DNA of 64,000 nt from an uncultured virus (IMG/VR IMGVR_UViG_3300006620_000021). Taxonomy: Duplodnaviria; Heunggongvirae; Uroviricota; Caudoviricetes. The notes below the pieces were generated by a model. That model saw only the letters and a list, made by a program, of their open reading frames with translations, ran no database searches and had not been told where the DNA came from. This document shows positions 12,019 through 61,724 of this stretch, in pieces. The stretch's first letter is position 1. The number at the start of each line of letters is the position of its first letter. The stretch lies in the IMG/VR virus record IMGVR_UViG_3300006620_000021. The stretch is one strand, 5' to 3'. The position numbers and the translations under genes were made by a program.

Positions 12019-12879
12019 ATGGATATTATCAATGGACGGTACGCGAAGTGTCGTGAGGTCTTCAAAAAGACGGATATCAATGAACTTCGTAAAGAGGTTG
12101 ACTGGCATTTTGAACATAACCTACATCCACACTGTGTGATTGAGAAGACCTATGATACAAAATATAAGAAGTCTCCTTTAACCACAGATAGTATTATTGA
12201 TGAGCATGGGTTAAGACCTAGTAAGAATACTCCTCAGGAATATCCGTATAACAAAGAGATCTGGAATACCTTCACTGTTACCATCGCATCTAAGGTTAGA
12301 AGATACTTAGAGAAAACGAATCCAGATCTATTAGAAAAAAAGTGGGAGTTTAAAGAACCATGTAGGAATGGTCATCAAGTCTATCCACATGCCATCTATG
12401 CAATGAAGTGGGATTCCTCAGAAAGATACCGAATGAATCGAAGTCTTGAATTTAATGAGTGTCCTCTCCATTGGTCTACTGGTTATAGACTTAAAAATAC
12501 TACCGATCTCAAATACAAAAAAGATAAGTTTATAAACGTTGTATATTACCTAGACAAAGGTTTGAAGTATCTCACAAACACTCAAAGGGAAGATCTTAAT
12601 ATCTTTGATGGGGGGACTGTCGTAGAGAAGGATAAGAAAATTTTTAAAGATGAAAGTGAGGATAACTCCGCATTTATCTTCACAGATCATCGATGGTCCT
12701 TAGCAGGTGAGAATCTTACCGCAATTGTCTTCTCATTCTCAATCTTCTCCGAGAATCGTTATGCAACCTGGATGTACCCTAGAGTCGCAGATTATGAGAA
12801 CCGCATGAAGCGCCGTTGTAAAAACTCCGTGGCAGTCTCCGAATACGTCATGTCGGAAACTGGTAAGATCTATAAGTGA
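12019..12879 (+). CDS. Hypothetical protein, possibly a degenerate 2OG-Fe(II) oxygenase fold
   Basis: 286-aa ORF; FINVVYYLD...GGTVV...FIF resembles DSBH strands; one of only two credible plus-strand genes. Confidence 0.6.
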   Translation: MDIINGRYAKCREVFKKTDINELRKEVDWHFEHNLHPHCVIEKTYDTKYKKSPLTTDSIIDEHGLRPSKNTPQEYPYNKEIWNTFTVTIASKVRRYLEKTNPDLLEKKWEFKEPCRNGHQVYPHAIYAMKWDSSERYRMNRSLEFNECPLHWSTGYRLKNTTDLKYKKDKFINVVYYLDKGLKYLTNTQREDLNIFDGGTVVEKDKKIFKDESEDNSAFIFTDHRWSLAGENLTAIVFSFSIFSENRYATWMYPRVADYENRMKRRCKNSVAVSEYVMSETGKIYK

Positions 12880-18061: not shown

Positions 18062-19255
18062 CTAGGGATAGAACCATGATACTTCGATGACCTGTGAGGC
18101 ACATTTACCACCGAATCCAAAACTATTATTCAGTGTTCGTAATGTCTCAATCCGCCCTGGTAATGGTACTGATGCTCTTACCAAACTGTTCGTCTTATCA
18201 TATGATGCCTTATGTAAATTAAAACATCTTGGGATAATTCTTCTCTTCATACTCTCAATACCGTAGATACATTCTAGGATACCTGCTGCTCCTAATGTAT
18301 GTCCTATCTTAGACTTTGGTGCATAGATTGGAATACTTCCGAATCGTTCAGTAATAGTATCATATTCAATAATATCTCCTACGGGTGTACTGGTAGCATG
18401 TGCAGATACCATATCAATCTTATCATTATATAATTTTGATAATGCCTTATTCATTGCAATCTTTGCACCCCTACCATCTGTTGCAGGACTTGTTAAATCA
18501 AATGCATCAGTTGCTGCTCCTACAGGATATAACTTTGCATGAATCTTTGATCCATACTCTTGTACCTTCTCCATTGATTGTAAGATTAAAACACCTGCAC
18601 CCTCACCCATCACAAACCCTTCGCGATCTTCATCAAAAGGCATGTTACGATTACCCAGTGCCCCAATACTTGCAAAATACTTTAATGCAATCTCAAATAC
18701 TCCTGCGTCTGCTCCTCCGACAATTACATAGTCATACTCATCCAGTATCCTCATTGCATAATCAATACTATACATTCCAGTTGCACAACTTGCTTGTAAT
18801 GCTACTGATGCACCATGGAATTGATACTTAGTGCATATATGTCCCACAATCATATCTGGAATACGATTGACAATAGTAAACGGATTTACACGCTTATTAT
18901 CTTTGAGGCGTTGATAGTTTGCATCAAGTGACTCAACGTCATTAGAGCATGATGAGATGATTACTGCGACATTAGAACTGTGTGGTAGATTACTATGCTT
19001 CAATGCCTGGTCTACAGCATGGATCGCTAGTTCTTGTGCCCGTGTCATGGTCTTTAATTTTTTCGGCGCGAACCCCTCGGGAAGAAGAGCGTCATGCAAA
19101 CATGGTATGCCATACTGAATCTTATGATCACCCATGAAGTCTAACTCCATTGCATAATCTTTATGATCAATCATTCCTTCAAAACACTGGGAGGGATATC
19201 TACCCAGTGCATCAATCATTCCGTAACCAACAACATACGCATTACTGACTGACAC
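18062..19255 (-). CDS. fabF: Beta-ketoacyl-ACP synthase (FabF/FabB family)
   Basis: Cys-His-His triad motifs ASCATG, HATST and KSKIGHT; GFVMGEGAG; NNSFGFGG; GTG start after GGAGG. Confidence 0.88.
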   Translation of the reverse strand: MSVSNAYVVGYGMIDALGRYPSQCFEGMIDHKDYAMELDFMGDHKIQYGIPCLHDALLPEGFAPKKLKTMTRAQELAIHAVDQALKHSNLPHSSNVAVIISSCSNDVESLDANYQRLKDNKRVNPFTIVNRIPDMIVGHICTKYQFHGASVALQASCATGMYSIDYAMRILDEYDYVIVGGADAGVFEIALKYFASIGALGNRNMPFDEDREGFVMGEGAGVLILQSMEKVQEYGSKIHAKLYPVGAATDAFDLTSPATDGRGAKIAMNKALSKLYNDKIDMVSAHATSTPVGDIIEYDTITERFGSIPIYAPKSKIGHTLGAAGILECIYGIESMKRRIIPRCFNLHKASYDKTNSLVRASVPLPGRIETLRTLNNSFGFGGKCASQVIEVSWFYP

Positions 19256-19297
19256 TGTACTATCCTCCAAAGATCATGATAATGTTCTTTAACTCTA

Positions 19298-27631: not shown

Positions 27632-28651
27632 CTAATGCTTTTGACCATCTTTTGTCAAGAGATCCAACACAATGTATCTCAATTGATCCATATCCTGGTA
27701 TCCAATTCGGTAACATTCACAACCTCCCAGTCTTGCAGCAGTGTCAGTAAACTGTGAGTTATATGATGATAGTATTAGTTTTGATTTTGAACACACAAAC
27801 CAATCAAGCAGATCTATCAGTGCATGACCATATCGCACTTGACGCTGCATTAAATCTCTATGCGTTAATCCACCCAGTTGCGTCATCTTTTTTAGATCAT
27901 AATGCTTACTCAGTAGTTGCAACCATTCAGACACATCCTCTTCTTTTGAATTAAAATTATACTTACCCAGATAATAATCATATAACTCTGGTGGCATATC
28001 TGACATGAGATACCAATCATAGTCTGGTAATTCCTTCATGACATATTCAATAACCTCATAGTATTGCTTATCAGGTATAAATGGGGGATATTCTGTATTG
28101 GGTGTAATGTCAGCATAATCATTGACTATCATGTTATTCTTATACATCCAACTAAAATACTTATTCCTGACGTGTCTAGGTAGTGCAGCATGTACTGTTT
28201 TTAGATCTTTTTTGAGTATAGGAACTCCAGACCATCTCCTCAAATGGAATGTGATATCAAAACCAATTCGTTCAATGAATTGGTTTAACTCTGGTATTTT
28301 GAACTTTATGTGCTTTATTGGATCATCATACTTAATATCAAACTCATAGGTATTCCAGATATATGAACTAATTGATCTATTGATCCTCCAATTATCAGTG
28401 ACACTCCAATCTTCTTGTCCATTATCTTTATCAATATCAGTCCACTCCAATTTGTTTATATCATGCCGACTCATTACCTGAGTGTTTGGAAGTTCTAGAA
28501 AAATGTGTTCTATCCACTCATCTTCAGGGATAACAACAACTCCTCCAAAGTTCCTTGTAATAATTTGCGCTTCTGCCCAAGCAATAACCCTACTACCATA
28601 TCCAAGATCACAGGATAGGTAAGTAGGGTTGGCATCGCAAAGTATTTGCAT
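27632..28651 (-). CDS. GT-B fucosyltransferase-like protein (NodZ/POFUT-like)
   Basis: GYGSR, FHLRRWSG, YLMSD and DWFVCSKSKLILSSYNSQF. Confidence 0.65.
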   Translation of the reverse strand: MQILCDANPTYLSCDLGYGSRVIAWAEAQIITRNFGGVVVIPEDEWIEHIFLELPNTQVMSRHDINKLEWTDIDKDNGQEDWSVTDNWRINRSISSYIWNTYEFDIKYDDPIKHIKFKIPELNQFIERIGFDITFHLRRWSGVPILKKDLKTVHAALPRHVRNKYFSWMYKNNMIVNDYADITPNTEYPPFIPDKQYYEVIEYVMKELPDYDWYLMSDMPPELYDYYLGKYNFNSKEEDVSEWLQLLSKHYDLKKMTQLGGLTHRDLMQRQVRYGHALIDLLDWFVCSKSKLILSSYNSQFTDTAARLGGCECYRIGYQDMDQLRYIVLDLLTKDGQKH

Positions 28652-30097: not shown

Positions 30098-31142
30098 TTA
30101 TCGGACATCATGCCCTCCAAACATCGCTCGCATACCATTCAGAACCTTGGCAGTGAAAGCACCAAGACGGCGCGACTCAAAACGTGCAAACAACGCACTG
30201 CTGATGACAGGAGCGGGTACGCCAAGATCCACAGCAGCGTGAACAGTCCAACGCCCTTCACCAGAGTCTGATACTCCCCCATCGAACTTGCTAAGTTCTC
30301 TATCACTGCGTAGTACAGTAGCGGTAAGGTCAAGTAACCAAGNNNNNNNNNNNNNNNNNNNNNCCACGACGCCATAACTCAGCCACCTCAGCAACATTAA
30401 CGTCGTACTGATAATCGGCAGGGTTGTCCATTGGGGCGACTTCAGCGTCTCCTGCTTTGACATACTGGGCACCAGCATTTGCTTCATGTAGAATGTTAAA
30501 TCCTTCGGCATATGCTTGCATTATACCATATTCTATGCCATTGTGAACCATCTTCACAAAGTGACCTGCTCCTGGTGGTCCACAATGCAACCATCCATAC
30601 TCTGCTGATGTAGAATGACTCAGAGGATCGGTACGTTCGGCAGCGGCAATACCTGGTGCGAGTGCCCTAAAGATTGGAGCGCAGGCGGATACTGCAAAAT
30701 TTGCACCACCAACCATAAGACAGTATCCACGGTCCAAACCGTAAACACCGCCACTAGTGCCACAGTCAAGATATGAGATGCCAAGTTTAGCAAGCCTGTC
30801 CGCCCTCCTGCGAGAGTCTTTAAAATTACTATTGCCATGATCAATAATAATATCTCCCTCCATACAAAACTGTAATAGCTCATTGATAGTATCCTCTACG
30901 GTCTCTGCTGGCACAACCATCATAAAGACACCAGGGGTCTTTCCAGTGGTCTTATTTGAATGTACTATTTGAACAAGATTTTGAATAGAAGTGGCACATC
31001 CACTGATATAACCCTTCTCAAATTGCTCTTCTGCTTTTTTATAATTGTTGCGATATCCATGAACCTCATGTTCTCCTGTTGCGATAAGACGGCGAGACAT
31101 ACCTTCTCCCATCCGTCCAAGACCAATCATTCCTACTTTCAT
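30098..31142 (-). CDS. gnd: 6-phosphogluconate dehydrogenase (spans an N gap)
   Basis: GMIGLGRMG, DCGTSGG, GHFVKMVHNGIEYG, DSGEGRW and MRAMFGGH; the frame break coincides with the Ns at 30343-30363. Confidence 0.95.
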
Positions 31143-31208
31143 AAGTGCCAATTTAAGTCAATGTATGTATTATAGCAGATTTAATATAATTAAGTATTTG
31201 TCACCATA

Positions 31209-39275: not shown

Positions 39276-39986
39276 TCATAGGTTTAGTTGTTCTGCAATG
39301 GCATATGCAGATTGTTTGTTAGTCTCCATACCAGGATGACAACAATCTCTACCATAATCAATTTGTTTTATGTAAGGACAATCAGTCATAAATCGATTTG
39401 ATGGGAATAATGTAAGATCTGCATATGGAATATCATCCCACATTTGCTGAGCACATTGTCTTGTAAAATTTAAATGAGTATATGCATTACTATCAAATCT
39501 TCTCCACGCTTTTCCTAAACCACCAACATCTTCCATCCAGGATCCACAATGCACTGTAGTATCATCTGGCAAAAACAATGTACATCTTGCAGCAGATGTC
39601 CAGGCAAAAACTATACCTGCTGGTTTAGGATATTTCTTTCTTAATATCGAAGAATTATATAAAGAGAACGTAGCACTTGATCCAGGTGCTCCCATATTTA
39701 CTACTGGTCTCTTTATTATAGAACTTAATTGTGCTGCTATAGTCTCATCAAGAGCAGCACCGATCCCAAACACGTATGAACAACCAAATATAACCACAGA
39801 CTCTGCCCAAGGTATGGTATTAAACTCTCTGGTCCTATAATTATGAGAATTGAGTTTATATTGTACTATTTTTTCCCTATACTTCCAATCAGGTGGTTGT
39901 GTCTTTAAATTCTTTTGGTACAACTGCTTCGTATCTTGGTCCATAAATGAACCCGAAGGTTTATCTTCTAATTCTAAAAAGTTCAT
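39276..39986 (-). CDS. SGNH/GDSL-like hydrolase or O-acyltransferase
   Basis: FGCSYVFG (block I), NMGAPGSS (block II) and DCCHPG (DxxH). Confidence 0.7.
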   Translation of the reverse strand: MNFLELEDKPSGSFMDQDTKQLYQKNLKTQPPDWKYREKIVQYKLNSHNYRTREFNTIPWAESVVIFGCSYVFGIGAALDETIAAQLSSIIKRPVVNMGAPGSSATFSLYNSSILRKKYPKPAGIVFAWTSAARCTLFLPDDTTVHCGSWMEDVGGLGKAWRRFDSNAYTHLNFTRQCAQQMWDDIPYADLTLFPSNRFMTDCPYIKQIDYGRDCCHPGMETNKQSAYAIAEQLNL

Positions 39987-41407
39987 GAGAATACCTTTAT
40001 TCCATGTTTCTGTGACCACAGTTCAACATCATATTCATCATTAACAATTGGTTGTCCTTTGATATTTAAACTTGTATTCAAGAGAACAGGATGACCACTA
40101 ACATGCTTCCATCTCATTAACAAATCGTGCAGTTTAGGTGCATCACATTTTCTCACAGTTTGAACTCTACTTGTGTTATCCACATGCACAACACCATGCA
40201 ACAACTCTGGTTGTTTACATTTAATAGCGTATTGCATAAATGGACTTTCTACTAAGTCTTCATGCATATCAAAATACCTAGAAGCATACTCTATAGGAAC
40301 CACTGGGGAGAATGGTCTGTAAGATTGTCGTTCCTTTATATTATTAACTATGTCTTTAATTCCAGGATGCATTGGATCAGCAATCAAACTCCGAGCACCA
40401 AGTGCTCTTGGTCCAAATTCTGCTCTACCTCTTGCTAAACCACATACATGATGATTTTTTAAATGATCGACAATAGTCCTATTCTTCTCCTCATGTGGAA
40501 TCCTATATCCCAAGTATGGAGAGAACTTTATTCTCTTCTGTGTATGTGCCAATACAGCACCAATAGCAGATCCAGCATCTCCTGGAGCAGGCATTATCCA
40601 AACATCATTAAAATAATCGTATGCTTTGATATTTGCTGCACAATTCAAAGCACATCCACCAGTTAATACCAATTTATTACTACCAACCAACTCCCTTGCT
40701 TTTCTCAACGCATTAGAAAACAAAACTCCATATACATGTTGAGTTGCTGCAGCAATATCCTCATCAGACTCTCCTGGTGCCCAATCCATACAACCTTTAT
40801 GAAGATTACGTTTTGCTTGGAAGTCAACACCAATCAGATCAGTCAATATTTTAGATGTAAGTTTACTCCTATCACCATAGGAAGATAATGCCATGAGAAT
40901 ATATTCATCCTCATTTGGTTTTAATCCTATTCTTTGAGTCATGGCAGAGTACCATAGACCAATGCTATTAGGATACTCCAATTTGTATCTTAGATTCAAT
41001 CTATTACCACCAGCTTCCCAAATACTCATGGTGGTAGTCTCACCAATCGCATCAACAACTAAAACAGCACAATTTCTATATGTGCTTGTAAAGTATCCAG
41101 CACAAGCATGAGAGTAATGATGATCAAAAAACTTATGCTTACAATCATAATACTTGGTAAAGTTTTTTATACCCAATCCTTGACCAGAACGTAACTGCCG
41201 TAACTTCTTCTTCCACGGTTTCTCATACCAACAGATAAGATCAGGATGTCCATATTGTAGAGCATGGAATAACAAATAATCGTCAATATTAGGATCATTC
41301 TTTATCCTACTAAATCGTTCACTCTCACTAGCAAACACCAAAGAATCGTTACAAAATACTGCAAGAGCAGCATTGTGACTATTCGATGATATTCCCCATG
41401 TGATCAT
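39983..41407 (-). CDS. Carbamoyltransferase (NodU/CmcH family)
   Basis: HNAA, SERFSR.KND, HHYSHA, GGCALNC, GDAGSAIG, EFGPRALG.RS and LLNTSLN. Confidence 0.93.
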   Translation of the reverse strand: MITWGISSNSHNAALAVFCNDSLVFASESERFSRIKNDPNIDDYLLFHALQYGHPDLICWYEKPWKKKLRQLRSGQGLGIKNFTKYYDCKHKFFDHHYSHACAGYFTSTYRNCAVLVVDAIGETTTMSIWEAGGNRLNLRYKLEYPNSIGLWYSAMTQRIGLKPNEDEYILMALSSYGDRSKLTSKILTDLIGVDFQAKRNLHKGCMDWAPGESDEDIAAATQHVYGVLFSNALRKARELVGSNKLVLTGGCALNCAANIKAYDYFNDVWIMPAPGDAGSAIGAVLAHTQKRIKFSPYLGYRIPHEEKNRTIVDHLKNHHVCGLARGRAEFGPRALGARSLIADPMHPGIKDIVNNIKERQSYRPFSPVVPIEYASRYFDMHEDLVESPFMQYAIKCKQPELLHGVVHVDNTSRVQTVRKCDAPKLHDLLMRWKHVSGHPVLLNTSLNIKGQPIVNDEYDVELWSQKHGIKVFS

Positions 41408-42224
41408 ACTTTTTCTCCCAATAACTAACTGGTAATGTAGGGTCTTCCTTTACGATTGGTGTTTGGTTTGCAGGACACATTGAACAATATGATTCATCCT
41501 CTCTAGACAAAAATTCTTCAAGTTCTGCATCAGTACAGTCAGGTTCTAATGGTTTATATTCTAGATATGGATCCCATTTAGAACTCAAATCATACTTTTT
41601 CTTTTGCATTGGAAGGTACGCTAAAGGTGGACACTTCCAGATTTTATTCTCATGTAGTTGTAAGGCATGCTTTGATATGCATTTATTCCAACTCTCTCTA
41701 GGATTATTATCATCAAAGGGTAGTATATTGCTACCAAATCCCTTATATTGTGGAATCCAGTGCTGATTCGTAAAGTCCCAAAACTCTACCGCAACACCAA
41801 GATCATGTCTCCATGATTTTGCTAATTGATACCCTCTTTTAAACTTCCTAGCGTAATCTTTGTGTTTTGTGCTATGTATCGATATTGCTAAGGTTGTACT
41901 TGTTGCCTTTAAAGCTGTAGGAAGTTGTGGATGATTGTGCAAAAAACTTGCATTTGATACCAAATCAATGCTGGTGTAGGGATCAGGATACATCAACCTA
42001 ATCATGTACACCATATCAACCAAATCTTTATGTAATGTTGGTTCTCCACCAAGTATTACAAATTTTTTTGGTTTAATTCTTCTGCTCCAATTATATAGCC
42101 ACTCTCTAGCATCATCTACCGATATTGTTCCAGAATGACCATGATTAGAATAGTGAGAGCAACCCTGACAACTAAAGTTGCATGTATGAGTCACATGGAA
42201 CTCTAGTTGTTTTGTTGTAAACAT
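41379..42224 (-). CDS. Radical SAM protein
   Basis: CNFSCQGC, GGEPTLH and a C-terminal CSMC. Confidence 0.9.
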   Translation of the reverse strand: MFTTKQLEFHVTHTCNFSCQGCSHYSNHGHSGTISVDDAREWLYNWSRRIKPKKFVILGGEPTLHKDLVDMVYMIRLMYPDPYTSIDLVSNASFLHNHPQLPTALKATSTTLAISIHSTKHKDYARKFKRGYQLAKSWRHDLGVAVEFWDFTNQHWIPQYKGFGSNILPFDDNNPRESWNKCISKHALQLHENKIWKCPPLAYLPMQKKKYDLSSKWDPYLEYKPLEPDCTDAELEEFLSREDESYCSMCPANQTPIVKEDPTLPVSYWEKKYDHMGNIIE

Positions 42225-46685: not shown

Positions 46686-47123
46686 CTAGTCCTCACAAAA
46701 ACTACAAGTGATTCTAGGTTCAAGGTGAACCGCACTATGAGGAGTTCCTTTATCGATATAAAGGGCATCCCCTGGTAAAAGAATAACCTCTTCTATTGTA
46801 CCATCATTGTCAAGCAAATACTTAATTCTACCCATTGATGCAACAATTAAAACATCATCAGCATCTTCATGCCACCCACCAGTCTCTCCATCATTTACTC
46901 TACTGTAATATATGTGGAACACACCATAACCAATCCTCTTCATTTGAATAAGAATGTTTTGTAGAAGACCTGGTTCAGAATATCCACAATTCACAAGTAA
47001 ACTTGTGTCTCCCCTATCTTCATAAGTTCCTTCCGCGTCTTCTATTTCTTTTTGCCTATCAACATGATCCCATCGAATTCCCTTCAAAAATGGATATGCT
47101 TTACGCTCAACCGAATAACTCAT
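46686..47123 (-). CDS. JmjC/cupin-like protein
   Basis: WHEDADDV...LLPGDALYI.KG.PH...RIT. Confidence 0.75.
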   Translation of the reverse strand: MSYSVERKAYPFLKGIRWDHVDRQKEIEDAEGTYEDRGDTSLLVNCGYSEPGLLQNILIQMKRIGYGVFHIYYSRVNDGETGGWHEDADDVLIVASMGRIKYLLDNDGTIEEVILLPGDALYIDKGTPHSAVHLEPRITCSFCED

Positions 47124-48367
47124 CGTTTTACCGTACTAATTGCTGGTTGTCCCTCTACGAACACTGTATTTACTACATCCTGCAGACGCTTGACTGTAGA
47201 GATTCCAACATTGCTGTAGACAGGAACATGGACAAGTCCAAAGGACTTCTTGTAATCTTCAAGTTTACCTGGTGTAAGTTGTCCTTGCTGTATTCTCTTT
47301 ACATCATCAAGATGTAAACGGAGAACGCGACCGACAGACTGACACATCTCAATAACATTCATCTGACGCATCAGAACCAATGAGGTGAGACCAGGAACAG
47401 AGATACCCTCACTCAAAATAGAATAATGAATAACAATAAACTTTTTGTCAGGTTGATCACCATACTCACGAACAAGGGAGAAGAACTTCTCACGACTAAT
47501 TTTGTTATAGTTGTGGAATGCACCCTGCCTACTAGTTATCCATAAAATATCATATCCCATCTCCCTTGCCTCTTGAAGGAAGGTGGTTTTGATAATCATG
47601 TTGCCCAACACCGTAGTGTTAGGAGCAGCAATCAGGACCTTCTGCATATGATCTTCATTCCGAAGAGTCCTCAATAGAGTCATACAATCACGTTGTGCTG
47701 CTTCCTCAACACTCTTCTCACGAACAGCAGCAATAGGAATAGCGTTGATCTTAGGAGGAAGGATAGAACCGTTCTTAATCAAGCGTGGTGCAGGAACATT
47801 GTAGATGATCCCACCAAACACACTGTCATTCATCCCATGTTTTTTAGTAGTGGCAGAATACTTAGGAGTAGCAGTGAAGAAATAGCAGCGGCGAGAAGCA
47901 GCAGCGTAATGCCTGGTAGCACCAAAGAAATTCTTTTTAACCGAATTGTGCGCTTCATCGAAATAGATGCAGTCCACAACTATTTTAGATTCTTGGATAC
48001 GATGAAGCGAATGATACGTAGTAAAAATTAGCTTATGGCAGGTTGTGTGATAATCCCACTTACTAATCATGCTGGGATCAGTGGTGCAATGGTATGGAAG
48101 ATCATGACCACCAGAATGGACGTGAAGGACAGCAGCATTCTTAATGTGCTGAGTAAACTCTTTAGACAGTTGACGAGCAAGCAAGAGGCGAGGAGCAACC
48201 ACAACAATAGTCTTGCAACCCTCCATCTTGTTCATCTCACGCATTGCATCAGCAATCGCAATAAAGGTCTTACCACCACCAGTAGGAACCACCACAGTAC
48301 CTTTGGACTTCATGTCCATGACATCAAGTGCTTCTGCCTGGTGCGGACGAAGTTGCATTGAACTCAT
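47120..48367 (-). CDS. SF2 DEAH helicase (type III Res-like)
   Basis: LRPHQ, PTGGGKT, DEAH, TATP, ILSEGI and QSVGRVLR. Confidence 0.9.
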   Translation of the reverse strand: MSSMQLRPHQAEALDVMDMKSKGTVVVPTGGGKTFIAIADAMREMNKMEGCKTIVVVAPRLLLARQLSKEFTQHIKNAAVLHVHSGGHDLPYHCTTDPSMISKWDYHTTCHKLIFTTYHSLHRIQESKIVVDCIYFDEAHNSVKKNFFGATRHYAAASRRCYFFTATPKYSATTKKHGMNDSVFGGIIYNVPAPRLIKNGSILPPKINAIPIAAVREKSVEEAAQRDCMTLLRTLRNEDHMQKVLIAAPNTTVLGNMIIKTTFLQEAREMGYDILWITSRQGAFHNYNKISREKFFSLVREYGDQPDKKFIVIHYSILSEGISVPGLTSLVLMRQMNVIEMCQSVGRVLRLHLDDVKRIQQGQLTPGKLEDYKKSFGLVHVPVYSNVGISTVKRLQDVVNTVFVEGQPAISTVKR

Positions 48368-48380
48368 GTGAATACGAATA

Positions 48381-48797
48381 TTATACCAGGAATTGATCTA
48401 CCGTGACGGGTCCTGTAGTTCCATCAAATCTGTAATGATACTGAAGTGCATCTGCACAGACAAAATGTGGGTGATCTGCAGGGATGTCAAGTCTCCTACA
48501 CATCTCTTTGTGATTGTCTTCCATCAACTCCACAGCATACAGCATATTGTTGATGATGTGATCTTTGCTGTGATATTCCTGCAGTGCCTCACATAAACAA
48601 ACAATGAAGTTACCACTGCCAGCACAATTATCCATGAACTTAGAGTCAGGATCCTTCAGTTGTGATGCAGGTATCTCCCGAATCATCTGTTCAATTAAAG
48701 CAATAGGAGTAAAGACCTCCTGTGTTTGCTTAATCCTCTCATCAGAGCGTTCAATGGTAGACCCATGCTGCTGATTGTGACGATTCTTAGATGACAT
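48381..48797 (-). CDS. Methyltransferase SAM-binding half (no catalytic motif IV)
   Basis: EVFTP (motif X), FMDNCAGSGNF (motif I), YAVEL and CADAL; no NPPY/DPPY. Confidence 0.8.
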   Translation of the reverse strand: MSSKNRHNQQHGSTIERSDERIKQTQEVFTPIALIEQMIREIPASQLKDPDSKFMDNCAGSGNFIVCLCEALQEYHSKDHIINNMLYAVELMEDNHKEMCRRLDIPADHPHFVCADALQYHYRFDGTTGPVTVDQFLV

Positions 48798-50160
48798 TAG
48801 ATCTCTCCAAGTAGTTCAGTTCTTCGGATGTAAAACCAAATTGCTGAGGTAGATCCTTGTAGACTGTGATGTCAGGTACTTCCGCATTCTTAATAGCAGG
48901 AGTAAATCCCGAAGTCCTTTTATAATTCTCCACAAAAAATTGAATGATCGGATTGTCAAAGATCTCGCTAAGACGCGAACCTTCTTCTTCCGAAGCAACA
49001 GGACACCACACGTTAAGCATACCCACAAATCCATTAGAGACGAACCTCTTCTTATATGTGCTGGAGAACGGGACGATGAACTTCAAAACATCACCAGTAG
49101 TTGGAAGTACATTTGTGCGAGCAACCTTATTGCCAGTTTTAAACACCTCATACTTACCATCAGGAATATAATCATCATTGGCAATCTCCTGACCAATCTT
49201 CAGAGGGATGCGAGGATGATTAGAATTAGCAATCTTCTCAAGAATAGAATACTTGAGAGCAGCATCACCAAAAACAGGCAGACCATCACGAAGGTCCCAA
49301 GTAAAGATCCCATCATGAGTAATCACAGTAGTCTTACCCTGATATGGTTCATTCACTAGATGCCAACGACAAATGTCCACACCTTCCGTAAAGTAATCAT
49401 CAGCAGTGTAATCAATCAGTTTAAGATTGTAGATAGTAGAGAACAACTGCATGAACTTCTTACCCTTGCCAGTGTTACCCAACACTGATGCAGGAGTAAC
49501 CTCACACATGTCACCACCAGGAGCAAGCAACTCAAGATGTTGCTCTACAATCTTTGTCCACAACTTATTGTTCCTTGCCTTCTTGGTAGGATCGTTGTAT
49601 GGAGGATTGGCAAGAATGGCGGTGAACTTCATGTCTGGGTTGGTGGATACTACTTCAATCTGCTTGTCAATATATCCTACACGATTACGATGACTATCGC
49701 AACTTTCCCATACAGTGAGACTGTCGGGATTGATTCCTCGTTCTAGAAGGCGAGCAGAGTGTGATCCACTAGGATCTCCAAACATGTATGTCTTGCTCAT
49801 ATCTTGACAGTCATTGATCATTGTATCAAGGAGCGAAGTGGGGATCGATTGCTGAATAGCAGATGAGACAGATAGACCGTTAATAGTCTCAGAGACCGAT
49901 TGTCTGATGCTCTTCTGAATGCTGTTGGAGACCAGACCGATGCGACGAGTCAGAAGTTCCATACTGTGAGGATTCTTAGAGATAACCTCAGAGAGGATTC
50001 CTTCTTTGTCACCAGTTACAGAAGAATAAACATCGGATCCAATCACATCGTTGATGGAGTACACATTCCGACCACTACGAATGATGTAGAACATGGTCAG
50101 AGGGATGGATTCCAGGAGTGCCTTGACAGTCTGCTTCTTCAGAGTGTCAAGGTCATCGAC
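48787..50160 (-). CDS. Eco57I-like N6-adenine methyltransferase catalytic/TRD region, probably translated as a -1 frameshift extension of the upstream helicase
   Basis: ILANPPY, LLAPGG...VTP; the frame is open upstream of the annotated ATG (50094) as far as the slippery site. Confidence 0.8.
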   Translation of the reverse strand, partial: VDDLDTLKKQTVKALLESIPLTMFYIIRSGRNVYSINDVIGSDVYSSVTGDKEGILSEVISKNPHSMELLTRRIGLVSNSIQKSIRQSVSETINGLSVSSAIQQSIPTSLLDTMINDCQDMSKTYMFGDPSGSHSARLLERGINPDSLTVWESCDSHRNRVGYIDKQIEVVSTNPDMKFTAILANPPYNDPTKKARNNKLWTKIVEQHLELLAPGGDMCEVTPASVLGNTGKGKKFMQLFSTIYNLKLIDYTADDYFTEGVDICRWHLVNEPYQGKTTVITHDGIFTWDLRDGLPVFGDAALKYSILEKIANSNHPRIPLKIGQEIANDDYIPDGKYEVFKTGNKVARTNVLPTTGDVLKFIVPFSSTYKKRFVSNGFVGMLNVWCPVASEEEGSRLSEIFDNPIIQFFVENYKRTSGFTPAIKNAEVPDITVYKDLPQQFGFTSEELNYLERSNVI

Positions 50161-50181
50161 TTTTTTACGCGATCAGTCTCC
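50121..50181 (-). promoter_or_regulatory. Programmed -1 ribosomal frameshift signal
   Basis: GGAG, 11 nt, in-frame A_AAA_AAG, 7 nt, then hairpin CCTTGACA-C-TCTG-AAGAAG-CAGA-C-TGTCAAGG. Confidence 0.8.
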
Positions 50182-51932
50182 ATCACGACACAACTTTGAT
50201 TGTTAGCACCATTGTCATTTAACTGCGTCTCCTTCAAGACTGTCGTAAGAGCAGACTTGAGGTTGAAGTTGAAGTCACTCAGACCACTGAGATCAAGAGA
50301 CTCAACAATGCTGGTCACAGTAGAGATGCTGCTCTCAACATCTGCTGCTAGAGCATCTTCAAATGCTTCCTTACTCAGTTCCTGGAACCCATCGTTCCAT
50401 TCATGGATGTTGGTGAAGTCTACGACGCTGAATTGAGACAATGAAGGGTTGCTATCACATGCGAGTTGGAACGCTGTATGAAGAGCACGTAGGCACCTCT
50501 GAGCGTCAAAATCAATGACCCACCAGTCATGATCACCAGATCCACCACGGAATGCGAACTGTGTCCAGAACTCAATCGATTCTCCACCACGGCAATTGAT
50601 AACAGTATCAATCTTCTCAGCAGTCACACCCAGAACATTTGCAGACTGAGTGATGATCAATGCCTTGGGATGCTCATCCAAGAATAGAGTGATATCTTCC
50701 TGATCTTTCTTAGCATCAGAGGTAACTACCAGTGCAGGATAGTAACACTCAACCAACTTTTGGAATGCATGACATGCCTTGACGCTAGGCAGTGCCATCA
50801 TGTGATATGTACCCTTCAACAAACGATCACCGATACGGATATTGCGTTGTGGTCCAAAGTAATTGCGAACAAACTCTCTGACCAGATCCTCATGCAAGAA
50901 CTCATTTCCTTTCATGGTGAAGATGTTCTTCATTGCATCAGGATCGTTACCAAAGATCTCTTGATATGCAGAAGTTTGATACTTAGCAAAGGCAACATTC
51001 ATCTTAGGACGTTGGAACACCCCATTCTGAACATCCAGTTGCTCATCAAAGTAGGTATAGACAAACTTCTGGTTGTCTTCGGGGAACATCCAACAAAGTT
51101 TATGAGCAGTTCCAGAGATGTAGCAAATACGAGTATCAAGTTCTTCGCGCAGTTTGACGAACTGATCAGCAGTGCCGCCAATATGTGCCTCATCAAAAGC
51201 AACAAAGTCAACGTTCTTGATCTTGTCCAGACGCTTCAAGCAAGTCTGAACCGTACCCCAAAGAACAACATTTACATCACGTTGACTCCAGTATTCAAGG
51301 AAGGTCTCCCAACCAGGATCTTTGAGAGAGACGTACTTGACTGAAGGGAAATACTTGTTTGAGTCCTTCTTCCAAGATGCCTCAGGAGACTTCTGACGGG
51401 AGCAAACAAGAGATACCTTATATTCGCTATCAACAATGTGCTTAAGAACCATTGCAGACTTACCTGCACGGCACTTAGCGAACAGCAGGAACTCGTTACT
51501 AGTACACCATGCAATCTTATTGAGGAACTTCTGCTGATATGGACGTGGTTTGAATTCTTCATACACCTTCTCCTTACCAGAGAAGAACTTCTCATGGATC
51601 ATCTCACCGATGATATCCAAGTTGTATCGCTTTGGATCATACTCAAAAGTCTCAGAGTTCTTAGCACCAAGCCTCTTAATACCAACTTGTTTGTCCAACC
51701 ATGCATGAATAATCTTATCGTGACCAGCATCATGACCATCATCACGAGTAGATACATCCTCCCACCAACGGCAGCGAATATACTTGGATTCAAATTGAGC
51801 TCCACGCTGATTTGCCTTACCATAATCGCTTCCACGATGCCGATGCTCCCAAGCGAAGCGAGTCTGACCAACATTGAAGGATGGTACAGTGATATTTTCG
51901 GCAGTGTCGAAGTAGATGTTGACGAGGGACAC
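50139..51932 (-). CDS. Nuclease (GIY-YIG/T5orf172-like)-SF2 helicase protein
   Basis: N-terminal NVGQT.R...HD..IH..L...ETF; PRPYQ, AKCRAGKS, FDEAH, SGTA and QFAFR. Confidence 0.8.
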   Translation of the reverse strand: MSLVNIYFDTAENITVPSFNVGQTRFAWEHRHRGSDYGKANQRGAQFESKYIRCRWWEDVSTRDDGHDAGHDKIIHAWLDKQVGIKRLGAKNSETFEYDPKRYNLDIIGEMIHEKFFSGKEKVYEEFKPRPYQQKFLNKIAWCTSNEFLLFAKCRAGKSAMVLKHIVDSEYKVSLVCSRQKSPEASWKKDSNKYFPSVKYVSLKDPGWETFLEYWSQRDVNVVLWGTVQTCLKRLDKIKNVDFVAFDEAHIGGTADQFVKLREELDTRICYISGTAHKLCWMFPEDNQKFVYTYFDEQLDVQNGVFQRPKMNVAFAKYQTSAYQEIFGNDPDAMKNIFTMKGNEFLHEDLVREFVRNYFGPQRNIRIGDRLLKGTYHMMALPSVKACHAFQKLVECYYPALVVTSDAKKDQEDITLFLDEHPKALIITQSANVLGVTAEKIDTVINCRGGESIEFWTQFAFRGGSGDHDWWVIDFDAQRCLRALHTAFQLACDSNPSLSQFSVVDFTNIHEWNDGFQELSKEAFEDALAADVESSISTVTSIVESLDLSGLSDFNFNLKSALTTVLKETQLNDNGANNQSCVVMETDRVKKSMTLTL

Positions 51933-60094: not shown

Positions 60095-60166
60095 AGCGGA
60101 GTATCGGAATCGAACCGACGACATCTAACTTGGAAGGATAGCGTTCTACCGCTGAACTAACTCCGC
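60095..60166 (-). tRNA. tRNA-Gly(TCC)
   Basis: GCGGAGT acceptor, CTTCCAA anticodon loop, GGTTCGATTCC T arm. Confidence 0.93.
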
Positions 60167-61013: not shown

Positions 61014-61724
61014 TCATTCTATATCTTTTTTGTATTTATCTCTTGGTTCATTGAATAGCACATTATCAATGTACTTGTCCGCCCATCTATCATTAAAACA
61101 CTTTGCCAGTATTCTTCTGGTCTTATCATTCTTTTTTTGTTGTTTGCAATAATTTACTTGACCATAATGCCGCATCTTTACAGACGAAAAAGTTTCACTT
61201 TGAGGTTCAGCAGTATTGACATATTTGCATAATGCCTTCAAGTAATTCTCCACCAAATCTAAAAATAGTTCCTTCTCCTCAGGTTCCTCAAGACTCATAA
61301 ATTTACAATATGGTGAGAATATAGATCCCCATTGAGGAATCTTCCTATCTTTACTAAATTTATATTTCGTAGATAATTGTGCAATATCTGCATATACTGG
61401 TGACCACCCATCTACTGGTGACAAGTCCACAATTGCAGCACTGACTATTGATTTGTTTGCAACAATATCTGCACCAAATATAGGTAAATTATATGCTGGG
61501 TCTGGAAACCAAACACAGTGCAAAATATCTAGAGCACCAAGATGTGCTACTTCCAAATGTATTTTACGCAATCCTTTGCATTTATACATTTCATTTTGAA
61601 TCACTAAAGATTCACCTTCAACCTCTTTGTAAATACTTTGATATTTTTTACTTACTTTGAGAGGTTTTAGTCCTGGCAATTCTTTCCAAGACTCGCGAAC
61701 AATGTTCGCCATACGATCAAGCAT
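61014..61724 (-). CDS. pcyA: Phycocyanobilin:ferredoxin oxidoreductase
   Basis: LRKIHLE, ILHCVWFPDP.YNLPIFGADIV, PQWGSIFS and YC.QQ.KNDKTRRIL. Confidence 0.9.
   Translation of the reverse strand: MLDRMANIVRESWKELPGLKPLKVSKKYQSIYKEVEGESLVIQNEMYKCKGLRKIHLEVAHLGALDILHCVWFPDPAYNLPIFGADIVANKSIVSAAIVDLSPVDGWSPVYADIAQLSTKYKFSKDRKIPQWGSIFSPYCKFMSLEEPEEKELFLDLVENYLKALCKYVNTAEPQSETFSSVKMRHYGQVNYCKQQKKNDKTRRILAKCFNDRWADKYIDNVLFNEPRDKYKKDIE

Follow-up and report, generated by a model that had tools for sequence, protein, structure and literature searches.

The window analyzed here, the whole 64,000-nucleotide stretch of viral DNA, carries on its minus strand two overlapping frames, the first a 597-aa ORF with an SF2 translocase core, whose tail reads GTA AAA AAG TCG ATG ACC TTG ACA CTC TGA, and the second a -1-frame continuation that contains a 435-aa ORF with a methyltransferase motif. 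The features of the locus are as follows.

50139..51932, minus strand: 0-frame ORF of 597 codons, coding for the predicted short product (an N-terminal domain and an SF2 translocase core)
50178..50181, minus strand: SD-like GGAG, 11 nt 5' of A_AAA_AAG
50173..50175, minus strand: -1-frame stop TGA, which closes the -1 frame 2 codons ahead of the slip site
50160..50166, minus strand: slippery heptamer A_AAA_AAG of the X_XXY_YYZ type in the 0 frame, read from the sequence
50153..50159, minus strand: 7-nt spacer, site of a 1-nt indel between layouts (GTC-GAT versus GTCTGAT, alignment A2 column 37)
50121..50152, minus strand: hairpin, a putative stimulator, with 8 bp CCTTGACA/TGTCAAGG, a C-C mismatch, 4 bp TCTG/CAGA, and a 6-nt loop AAGAAG (12 bp total)
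50139..50141, minus strand: 0-frame stop TGA, 6 codons past the heptamer and within the hairpin
48787..50160, minus strand: -1-frame continuation of 457 codons plus a stop, beginning KKVDDLDTLKKQTVKALLESIPLTMFYII, with a predicted helical linker (~95 aa), gamma-class N6-adenine methyltransferase, and C-terminal recognition domain
50095..50160, minus strand: 22 codons readable solely via a -1 shift, VDDLDTLKKQTVKALLESIPLT
50092..50094, minus strand: ATG, the listed start of the 435-aa ORF and most likely an internal Met
49597..49608, minus strand: methyltransferase motif IV NPPY, seen in the translation, with coordinates computed from residue numbers

There is no ATG, GTG, or TTG between the TGA at 50175-50173 and the ATG at 50094, and the predicted shifted product is 591 + 457 = 1048 aa long. 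An earlier sequence-only reading of this DNA had proposed the coordinates, the three-part layout, and the open -1 frame, and all are correct to the base; the layout that it likened to those of dnaX and IS911 is also complete, with the heptamer, the upstream SD-like GGAG, and the downstream hairpin all present. SD-like stimulators have a spacing optimum of ~10 to 14 nt upstream of the heptamer.

Judged from its sequence, this locus in a single gene of a T4-like cyanomyovirus is very probably a site of dnaX-type programmed -1 frameshifting. On reaching A_AAA_AAG, ribosomes engaged on the SF2-translocase part would be held by two elements, the hairpin that lies 7 nt downstream and the upstream GGAG, which would pair with 16S rRNA, and both Lys-tRNAs would slip back by one base. 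Non-slipping ribosomes would terminate six codons on to give a 597-aa translocase, and those that slip would continue for 457 codons, so that the translocase is followed in one 1048-aa chain by the linker, the N6-adenine DNA methyltransferase, and the recognition domain. About half of the relatives have one extra nucleotide in the spacer, which unites the two frames; in these, a shift at the same signal would bring the protein to an end after one further codon.

The heptamer itself is unremarkable in the window, with five in-frame copies of A_AAA_AAG against 4.6 expected (62 ORFs), but the full combination of features is found within the window only at the 50121-50181 site. The 52-nt stretch of the site folds at -18.2 kcal/mol (z -4.22; reached by 0 of 200 shuffles), with a core of -15.7 kcal/mol. 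None of the other four in-frame heptamers of the window has an SD-like motif or a strong fold (z -1.65 to +0.82), and the -1 frames at these four close in 1 to 10 codons. As in-frame A_AAA_AAG is not avoided in the window, a bare heptamer may be just mildly shifty in the host. An Rfam cmscan of 49900-50400 with E values up to 10 returned three chance-level matches to unrelated families and no frameshift-element family.

Fifty loci span the junction, including the window, with 38 to 100% identity to the window over the flanking 120 aa, and 49 of them have AAAAAAG in the A_AAA_AAG phase, the conservation for which the sequence-only reading had asked. These 49 fall into two layouts. In 24 loci a -1 shift is required for the ~1048-aa fusion, and the -1 phase is kept in all of them; from AAG to the 0-frame stop the distance is 0 or 6 codons, and the -1 frame has 457 open codons in contigs that extend far enough. 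In the other 25 the two parts are in frame, and the -1 frame hits TGA after one codon in every case. The one locus lacking the heptamer (L065) is also in frame. The layouts are separated by a 1-nt indel that lies in the spacer and outside the A-run, the spacer being 7 nt long in 13 distinct shift-needed junctions and 8 nt long in 12 distinct in-frame junctions. Among these 25 distinct junctions, GGAG is in the matching columns of 24, and the remaining one has GAGG one base on. The codon ahead of GAG encodes M, R, Q, L, or A, yet its third base is G in 24 of the 25; the codon ahead of AAA AAG is GTA, GCA, ACA, or ATA (V, A, T, or I), its third base always A.

In-frame fusion homologs had been named as a finding that would count against frameshifting. 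Such homologs do exist, yet 25 of the 26 within the signal-bearing clade still carry the signal, with a -1 stop one codon past it, and they strengthen the case for frameshifting. The signal is absent in distant relatives only: cyanophages MA01, S-CAM7, and ACG-2014f and 7 of the 10 examined loci of L057-L067. Trees, which were made by quick search only, have at least three switches between the shift-needed and in-frame layouts; the window's clade (11 distinct full-length sequences) is nested within in-frame relatives, and the shift-needed layout arose or persisted in at least two deep lineages.

Compensatory changes in the hairpin, a further check suggested by the sequence-only reading, are seen in the stem. 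Cells in the stem columns are paired in 91.7% of cases versus 30 to 42% with the partner slid, and six stem pairs have compensatory change; double-change cells number 16 versus 4.2 ± 1.6 in shuffles, a value reached by 0 of 500, although the sequences are related and these shuffle statistics, as well as a Mann-Whitney p of 1e-4, thus overstate independence. RNAalifold independently predicts the identical stem. The core stem is strong in all 13 distinct shift-needed junctions (-15.7 to -11.6 kcal/mol) and ranges from -14.0 to -0.6 kcal/mol in the 12 distinct in-frame junctions, being weak in five of these. The uniform strength of the stem where the shift is needed points to selection for efficient shifting. 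Four outer base pairs added by the minimum free energy fold (GAUG with CA.UC) were rejected, as they are 77% paired and have zero compensatory change.

Alternatives to programmed frameshifting start from the same two frames. One is gene fission without recoding, in which a 1-nt deletion split an ancestral fusion into a separately translated 597-aa translocase and a 435-aa linker-methyltransferase that starts at ATG 50094, either on its own or through ribosomes that re-initiate past the stop lying 44 nt upstream; the heptamer and hairpin would then be remnants. Distant relatives do have separate genes (704 + 348 aa in S-CAM7 and 691 + 337 aa in ACG-2014f), bare heptamers are common in the window, and most shift-needed loci keep the ATG, such that some independent initiation there, 22 codons downstream of the slip site, may occur. 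However, the S-CAM7 and ACG-2014f split falls ~95 aa further on, past the linker, and the 22 codons between slip site and ATG are themselves under purifying selection in the -1 frame: they occur in seven distinct versions within the window's clade, with 2, 1, and 8 variable sites at codon positions 1, 2, and 3, respectively, and a pN/pS of 0.043. A start codon preceding them is absent from the window and from L007, L020, L044, L048, and L050. The ATG is itself replaced by GTT in L050, a shift-needed locus, and by ATT in L014, and the residue at this position is Ile in L039, L052, and L053; the Met at 50094 is thus most likely internal. Together with the presence of the heptamer, SD-like motif, and strong stem in 13 of 13 distinct shift-needed junctions, the stem decaying in in-frame lineages only, this makes fission quite improbable. 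An artifact or a dead gene, whether from an assembly or sequencing indel in a homopolymer, from a mutation that recently inactivated the gene, or from slippage of RNA polymerase along the A-run, is extremely unlikely. Sequencing errors and transcriptional slippage do typically occur at homopolymer runs, but A6 is shorter than the runs known for efficient transcriptional slippage, and contigs of four runs from four studies cover 49700-50600 with zero indels; three of these runs are possible sources of this DNA, so that clear independence applies to the fourth alone, where a few substitutions are seen. In total, 20 runs from nine studies contain the stretch, all analyzed as contigs, and the single RNA run contains 0.05 of its sampled words. 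The A6 run that the sequence-only reading wished to see confirmed is identical in the contigs of the four runs and in each of the 49 loci that carry the heptamer, which also rules out phase variation through A-run length; the indel that separates the frames lies outside the run. Moreover, wherever the contig of a shift-needed locus extends to the stop, all 457 downstream codons are intact, at identities down to 56 to 58% (first 120 downstream residues), and pN is well below pS in the downstream codons.

Corrective frameshifting is another alternative, according to which the signal evolved in in-frame ancestors for a truncated translocase, and the window's lineage tolerates its 1-nt deletion, which is rescued by shifting at the old signal, leaving the 597-aa product and any ratio without adaptive meaning. 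Compensatory frameshifting on indels is a recognized class in the part of the review by Atkins et al. (2016, PMC5009743) available to us, and the nesting of the window's clade among in-frame relatives that already bear the full signal speaks for this explanation. Against it are the occurrence of the shift-needed layout in at least two deep lineages, its diversification to the 11 full-length sequences of the window's clade, and the uniformly strong stem, and we give this explanation very little credence; even so, it too requires real -1 frameshifting.

The protein parts support an SF2 translocase joined to an N6-adenine methyltransferase with a recognition domain, as seen in predicted folds. 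The 597-aa ORF matches phrog_22930 (E 3.7e-185), and the profile of this family runs across the junction, with residues 8-93 of the 435-aa ORF matching its positions 604-689 and residues 100-415 matching the methyltransferase family phrog_3689. The Walker A GKS (residues 157-159) and the DEAH-box residues D247, E248, and H250 are invariant, with Pfam ResIII matching the upstream part at only E 0.062. The upstream model matches XPB (Foldseek E 1.2e-8), EcoP15I (VIA-align Z 10.8), and LlaBIII (4xqk_A; VIA-align Z 12.5, rmsd 3.1, 168 aligned), the last ranking second and within 1 Z unit of many unrelated SF2 helicases. In the downstream part, Pfam Eco57I matches at 9e-07, and N185, P186, P187, and Y188 of the NPPY motif are invariant in alignment A3. 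Its fold matches 7eew (6.9e-10), CamA, M.TaqI, BpuSI, and type I HsdM (E 1e-6 to 7e-10), the model having a pLDDT of 69 and TM-scores to these matches of 0.32 to 0.43; a PADLOC match to REase_MTase_IIG is weak (E 0.006).

The sequence-only reading had described the product as a nuclease-helicase-methyltransferase with a target recognition domain, of which the SF2 translocase, methyltransferase, and recognition domain are supported by the folds and the nuclease is not: no nuclease family or fold was detected for residues 1-125, for which Pfam, NCBIfam, PADLOC, and PDB sequences gave no match at all. Pfam searches of 10 N-terminal domains with E values up to 10 gave two chance matches only, and PDB sequence searches with a 13-sequence upstream profile, the 457-aa downstream part, and an N-terminal profile gave nothing usable. 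The ESM Atlas provides a weak lead from residues 1-125 to UvsW_N (score 0.90, 140 shared features). A GIY-YIG or T5orf172-type identity for residues 1-100, suggested by the look of their motifs, is unsupported by any search and is not claimed here.

The tRNA context bears on how readily the heptamer could shift, as tRNA-Lys(CUU) lowers shifting on AAG in E. coli-based work. A full tRNA census of one cyanobacterial genome (G111) found tRNA-Lys(CUU) besides UUU, and BLAST with one query found tRNA-Lys(UUU) only in 11 other cyanobacterial genomes. Genomes matched by the phage 6-phosphogluconate dehydrogenase are all non-cyanobacterial but one, and the phage bilin reductase is just 38 to 46% identical to those of the sampled cyanobacteria and so provides no evidence-based host proxy.

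Because the shift would extend the protein in one layout and truncate it in the other, both layouts would yield a long and a short product, and the repeated layout flips suggest that a substantial fraction of ribosomes shift. The two products may act jointly as a Type ISP-like or Type I-like DNA-tracking methyltransferase. The fixed ratio proposed in the sequence-only reading, with the shift setting subunit stoichiometry, is an inference. A bolder proposal, which we advance tentatively and with some doubt, is that this is a two-way recoding site, at which 1-nt spacer indels have flipped orthologs between shifting to extend and shifting to truncate on at least three occasions, with the heptamer, SD-like motif, and stem retained. 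Flips would be near neutral only with shifting by about half of the ribosomes, and the family would then report naturally on ~50% -1 frameshifting in marine picocyanobacteria. It would also be the first restriction-modification-like enzyme in which recoding determines how much free DNA translocase is made relative to the translocase-methyltransferase fusion. The loss of the heptamer in L065 and the weak stems in 5 of the 12 in-frame junctions suggest that the short form may be dispensable in the in-frame layout.

To our knowledge, almost all cases of programmed frameshifting described in tailed phages are in tail-chaperone genes and a few capsid genes, and little recoding has been documented in cyanobacterial translation. 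If the proposed shift is real, programmed frameshifting would extend to a DNA-enzyme gene of abundant marine cyanophages, with the site a testable case for recoding in cyanobacterial translation and the two layouts among close relatives serving as natural mutants for probing the required long-to-short ratio. For restriction-modification, it suggests a means of fixing the stoichiometry of motor versus recognition and methylase functions without separate genes. Gene callers split the gene or give a short 'hypothetical' protein and a methyltransferase with a false start, and a frameshift join belongs in the annotation. The literature searched, including the available parts of PMC5009743, PMC10885494, and PMC7230728, contained no account of frameshifting in a cyanophage or in a gene for a helicase-methyltransferase. 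The word 'methyltransferases' in the available part of PMC10885494 appears, judging by the title, to derive from its reference 36, on macrolide-induced frameshifting.

Known frameshift sites share several features with this one. E. coli dnaX has an upstream SD-like element and a downstream stem-loop, and the likeness extends to the A_AAA_AAG heptamer and, for the 25 in-frame relatives, to a shift that would meet a stop within one codon and so truncate the product. As described in the available part of Atkins et al. (2016, PMC5009743), dnaX shifts at A_AAA_AAG with a sole tRNA-Lys and a tau:gamma ratio of 1:1. The genes are unrelated, without sequence or structure homology, and the window's predicted shift would lengthen the protein instead of shortening it and is in a phage of a cyanobacterial host. 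IS911 OrfAB also uses A_AAA_AAG with flanking stimulators to join two overlapping frames into a fusion enzyme, and the window's layout likewise joins overlapping frames into a fusion enzyme. Frameshifting is used by the IS3 family in general (PMC5009743, in the part available). Unlike IS911, however, this is a phage gene and not a transposable element, and its in-frame fusion orthologs retain the signal. The alpha-carboxysome gene csoS2 of Halothiobacillus, a different gene, has a ~50% -1 shift that gives a truncated second isoform with a few -1-frame residues, and only the truncating layout is described for it in the available part of that review (PMC5009743). The same part describes the phage tail assembly chaperone G/GT, where a conserved -1 frameshift gives a short and a C-terminally extended protein (PMC5009743). 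G/GT differs in being a structural-assembly gene with other heptamers, the window's site being in a DNA-enzyme gene.

Cyanophage MA01 (a single 1074-aa fusion), S-CAM7, and ACG-2014f (two genes each) code for members of the same family with 39 to 43% identity to the 597-aa part, annotated in their records as type II restriction-modification restriction subunit, Eco57I, or hypothetical protein; they differ in having no A6 run anywhere in the gene and in being plainly fused or split past the linker. In Type IIG (Eco57I-like) enzymes, nuclease and methyltransferase are joined directly and an ATPase is absent, whereas here an SF2 ATPase precedes the methyltransferase. We know of no recoding in Type ISP enzymes, from which the window's product also differs in that an Mrr or PD-(D/E)xK nuclease is not detected here and in its length (~1048 aa versus 1517 residues in the solved LlaBIII chain). 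With the Type ISP enzymes LlaGI and LlaBIII, however, the predicted fusion shares the organization of a single polypeptide consisting of an SF2 translocase, a linker, a gamma-class N6-adenine methyltransferase, and a recognition domain.

The gene under study consists of a 597-aa translocase open reading frame (ORF) in the 0 frame and, in the -1 frame, a 457-codon continuation that includes a 435-aa methyltransferase ORF with an ATG at 50094. A sequence-only reading proposed that the two are joined by -1 ribosomal frameshifting, and both the minus-strand sequence and the ORF listing confirm all of its coordinates, as follows.

50139..51932, minus strand: 597-codon ORF, with the 3' end GTA AAA AAG TCG ATG ACC TTG ACA CTC TGA
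50181-50178, minus strand: GGAG, 11 nt upstream of the heptamer
50175-50173, minus strand: TGA closing the -1 frame upstream of the slip site
Past the TGA at 50175-50173, open to 48787, minus strand: -1 frame, reading SRKKVDDLDTLKKQTVKALLESIPLTMFYII...
50166-50160, minus strand: heptamer A_AAA_AAG, in the 0 frame
50152-50121, minus strand: hairpin, separated from the heptamer by a 7-nt spacer, with 8 bp, a C-C mismatch, 4 bp, and a 6-nt loop

By codon count, a shifted ribosome is predicted to make a product of 591+457 = 1048 aa. The hairpin region (52 nt) folds at -18.2 kcal/mol (z -4.22), a value matched by 0 of 200 shuffles. The 0-frame stop (50139-50141) is at the top of the hairpin (50121-50152), within the inner stem and loop, such that non-shifting ribosomes would have to open the stem to terminate; loci of the type of L020, a relative, instead have a TAG stop directly 3' of the heptamer. 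The heptamer itself is not special in the window, with five in-frame A_AAA_AAG seen in 62 chosen ORFs and 4.6 expected from codon usage. The other four (first A at 27893, 12336, 44416, and 61137) have no SD-like motif, no hairpin or notable fold (z -1.65 to +0.82), and no long ORF in the -1 frame, which closes after 1 to 10 codons (1 codon at 61137, in the bilin reductase gene, and 3 codons at 12336).

Scans of IMG/VR (17 loci) and of metagenome contigs (49 loci) give 66 related loci, with some contigs in both, and the junction was placed by tblastn with two pieces, the 120 residues leading up to the slip site and the 120 that follow it. Forty-nine loci, including the window, match fully across the junction, and L065, which is one residue short, was treated apart, for a total of 50. 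Left out are five loci whose contigs stop before the junction (L043, L049, L051, L054, and L055), two with no match to either tblastn piece (L068 and L069), and ten with ∼38% identity (L057-L064, L066, and L067), of which the seven inspected encode fusions in a single frame (1061-1086 aa) and lack an A-run at the junction. AAAAAAG is in the A_AAA_AAG phase in 49 of the 50 junction-spanning loci, and the run is A6 in the assembled contigs of all 49, in accord with the proposed slip site. The sole exception is L065, a partial metagenome contig that reads GAA AAA ACG (454-462) in frame; its loop has an additional AAG codon, and the stem can still form with two G-U pairs.

The heptamer-bearing loci have two layouts. 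In 24 loci the shift is needed for the longer product, with the 0-frame stop either six codons past AAG or an immediate TAG (L020, L044, L046, and L048), and the -1 frame is open onward for 457 codons where the contig is long enough. The other 25 are in frame, open for 457-459 codons, and a -1 shift would shorten the product, because the -1 frame hits a TGA after one codon (GTC TGA or GAT TGA) in all 25. Removing duplicates leaves 25 junction sequences (13 shift-needed and 12 in-frame), and their alignment shows that the layouts differ by one spacer base (GTC-GAT vs GTCTGAT) outside the A-run.

Across these 25 junctions, the codon 5' of AAA AAG is GTA, GCA, ACA, or ATA, with a varying residue and a third base fixed as A. 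The codon 5' of an invariant GAG is ATG, CGG, AGG, CAG, CTG, or GCG, and GGAG is thus kept in 24 of 25, with L020 having GAGG one base further. The T of the -1 TGA is retained in the in-frame group, where AAG is followed by TCT in 11 junctions and by ATT in the remaining one. Of the cells in the stem (columns 43-55 with 62-74), 91.7% are paired, compared to 30-42% with the partner slid by 1-3 columns, and RNAalifold, run independently, predicts the same stem. The compensatory changes anticipated for the hairpin are present, with six pairs changed on both sides, including 49/68 (C-G to U-G to U-A), 50/67 (A-U to G-C), and 45/72 (U-A to C-G). There are 16 double-change cells versus 4.2±1.6 in shuffles, with 0 of 500 shuffles reaching 16, although the shuffle figures overstate independence because the sequences are related; the slid controls and the double changes carry more weight. 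The core stem has an energy of -15.7 to -11.6 kcal/mol in each of the 13 shift-needed junctions and of -14.0 to -0.6 kcal/mol across the 12 in-frame junctions. It is thus preserved throughout the group whose long product relies on it, and in some of the other lineages it has decayed.

The ATG at 50094 is most likely an internal Met rather than a conserved start, as judged from codon variation, substitutions at its position, and a lack of start codons. There is no ATG, GTG, or TTG in the -1 frame upstream of the slip site in the window, L007, L020, L044, L048, or L050, or between the slip site and the ATG in the window. Among seven distinct versions of the intervening 22 codons in the window's clade, variable sites number 2, 1, and 8 at -1-frame codon positions 1, 2, and 3 (pN/pS 0.043), and the nine codons furthest from the slip site, past the hairpin, show only synonymous changes in the -1 frame when read by eye. 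Conservation of the 22-codon peptide extends to the in-frame relatives, in which its translation is certain. The ATG is replaced by GTT in L050 (shift-needed), by ATT in L014, and by an Ile codon in L039, L052, and L053.

Three sequenced phages lack the A6 run in this gene and fall outside the clade of all signal-bearing loci in trees from a quick maximum-likelihood search; S-CAM7 and ACG-2014f have two genes (704 + 348 aa and 691 + 337 aa, respectively), and MA01 has one fusion of 1074 aa. In the window's clade, 11 distinct shift-needed sequences are nested among in-frame relatives already with the full signal, and the other deep clade has both layouts, shift-needed in L020/L048 and L050 and in-frame in L052/L053, for at least three layout changes with L050 in the tree. 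This placement indicates that the signal arose once and was kept through repeated layout flips, which is hard to explain unless ribosomes truly use both frames.

The probable frameshift site is not an artefact. A 901-base stretch is present in 20 public runs from 9 studies, and contigs of 4 runs (4 studies) extend over its full length with zero indels, although three of these runs are possible sources of the window's DNA and are thus not independent support. One of the four contigs differs at five listed positions (the contig table counts six substitutions), and every change lies 3' of the ATG; these are contig comparisons, a level at which minority read variants are invisible. With a conserved heptamer, GGAG, stem, and coding -1 frame, the core of the sequence-only reading is supported, and this is very probably a functional programmed -1 frameshift site; its efficiency, product ratio, and biological role we only infer.

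According to Atkins et al. 2016 (PMC5009743), A_AAA_AAG is very shifty in Escherichia coli because the only tRNA-Lys there forms weak pairs with AAG, and roughly half of all bacteria have just one tRNA-Lys. A 2.7-Mb cyanobacterial genome (G111) has Lys(UUU) and Lys(CUU) in a census of 43 tRNA matches, and 11 other cyanobacterial genomes queried with the G111 CUU gene yield Lys(UUU) only, with second matches being Asn or Thr. Over these 12 genomes, 11 of them examined with a single query, the balance tips slightly to most cyanobacteria having one tRNA-Lys. The two G111 genes (L157 and L166) are 90% identical, which, with only UUU found in the other 11, suggests a recent duplication and anticodon change.

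The protein family is continuous across the frame break, as phrog_22930 (691 positions) spans both ORFs, with positions 13-572 matching the 597-aa ORF and 604-689 matching residues 8-93 of the 435-aa ORF; methyltransferase family phrog_3689 covers residues 100-415 of the latter. The upstream model (pLDDT 56.6 overall, which is poor, with residues 1-130 and 160-270 good) matches SF2 translocases, including XPB (Foldseek, E 1.2e-8) and, by VIA-align, BRM (Z 12.6), the Type ISP enzyme LlaBIII (12.5), SauUSI (11.7), and EcoP15I (10.8), and the GKS and DEAH-box residues D247, E248, and H250 are invariant in the alignment. Residues 1-125 have no family in Pfam, NCBIfam, PADLOC, or PDB sequences, so the earlier 'nuclease' label is unsupported; the ESM Atlas points, weakly, to the N-terminal domain of UvsW. 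The first ∼95 residues past the slip site are modelled as helical and have their counterpart in the C-terminal part of the translocase proteins that S-CAM7 and ACG-2014f encode separately. The downstream model (pLDDT 69) matches N6-adenine DNA methyltransferases with a recognition domain (7eew, 6.9e-10; CamA; type I HsdM; M.TaqI; and Type IIG BpuSI), with an invariant NPPY in the alignment and a Pfam Eco57I match (9e-07). Two further genes lie directly downstream and may belong to a common module with this one.

48381-48797, minus strand: 138-aa protein
47120-48367, minus strand: second SF2 helicase, 415 aa (ResIII 3.1e-19; PADLOC PbeA 2.1e-14)

The similarity of the 138-aa protein to N6 DNA methyltransferases is confined to their N-terminal SAM-binding part (Pfam N6_Mtase, 21-89 of 311; PADLOC mad2, 4.6e-06), and S-CAM7 has a 133-aa gene at the same position.

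The window comes from a T4-like cyanomyovirus, coding for baseplate gp6 and gp25, a 1964-aa tail fibre, a transaldolase, a bilin reductase, a 6-phosphogluconate-dehydrogenase-like protein, and several 2OG-Fe(II) oxygenases, and at the DNA level it matches phages of Synechococcus and Prochlorococcus. Beside the common transaldolase and oxygenases are unusual auxiliary genes coding for beta-ketoacyl synthase-like, carbamoyltransferase, and radical SAM proteins (18062-19270, 39983-41407, and 41379-42224, all minus strand). The 6-phosphogluconate-dehydrogenase-like protein (30330-31151, minus strand) has its best genome matches (45-52% identity) in Chloroflexota, Actinomycetota, Acidobacteriota, and others, with one cyanobacterium among the matches listed (80 loci). 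The sole tRNA in the window is tRNA-Gly(UCC) (60095-60166, minus strand).

By homology the site belongs to none of the curated RNA families, and no report of frameshifting in a cyanophage or a helicase-methyltransferase gene was found in the literature covered, which lies outside subscription journals. By mechanism, it has every sequence feature of the dnaX/IS911 class, and the -1 TGA after one codon in the in-frame relatives is the dnaX arrangement. The twist is that orthologues would use one signal both ways, to lengthen or to shorten the protein.
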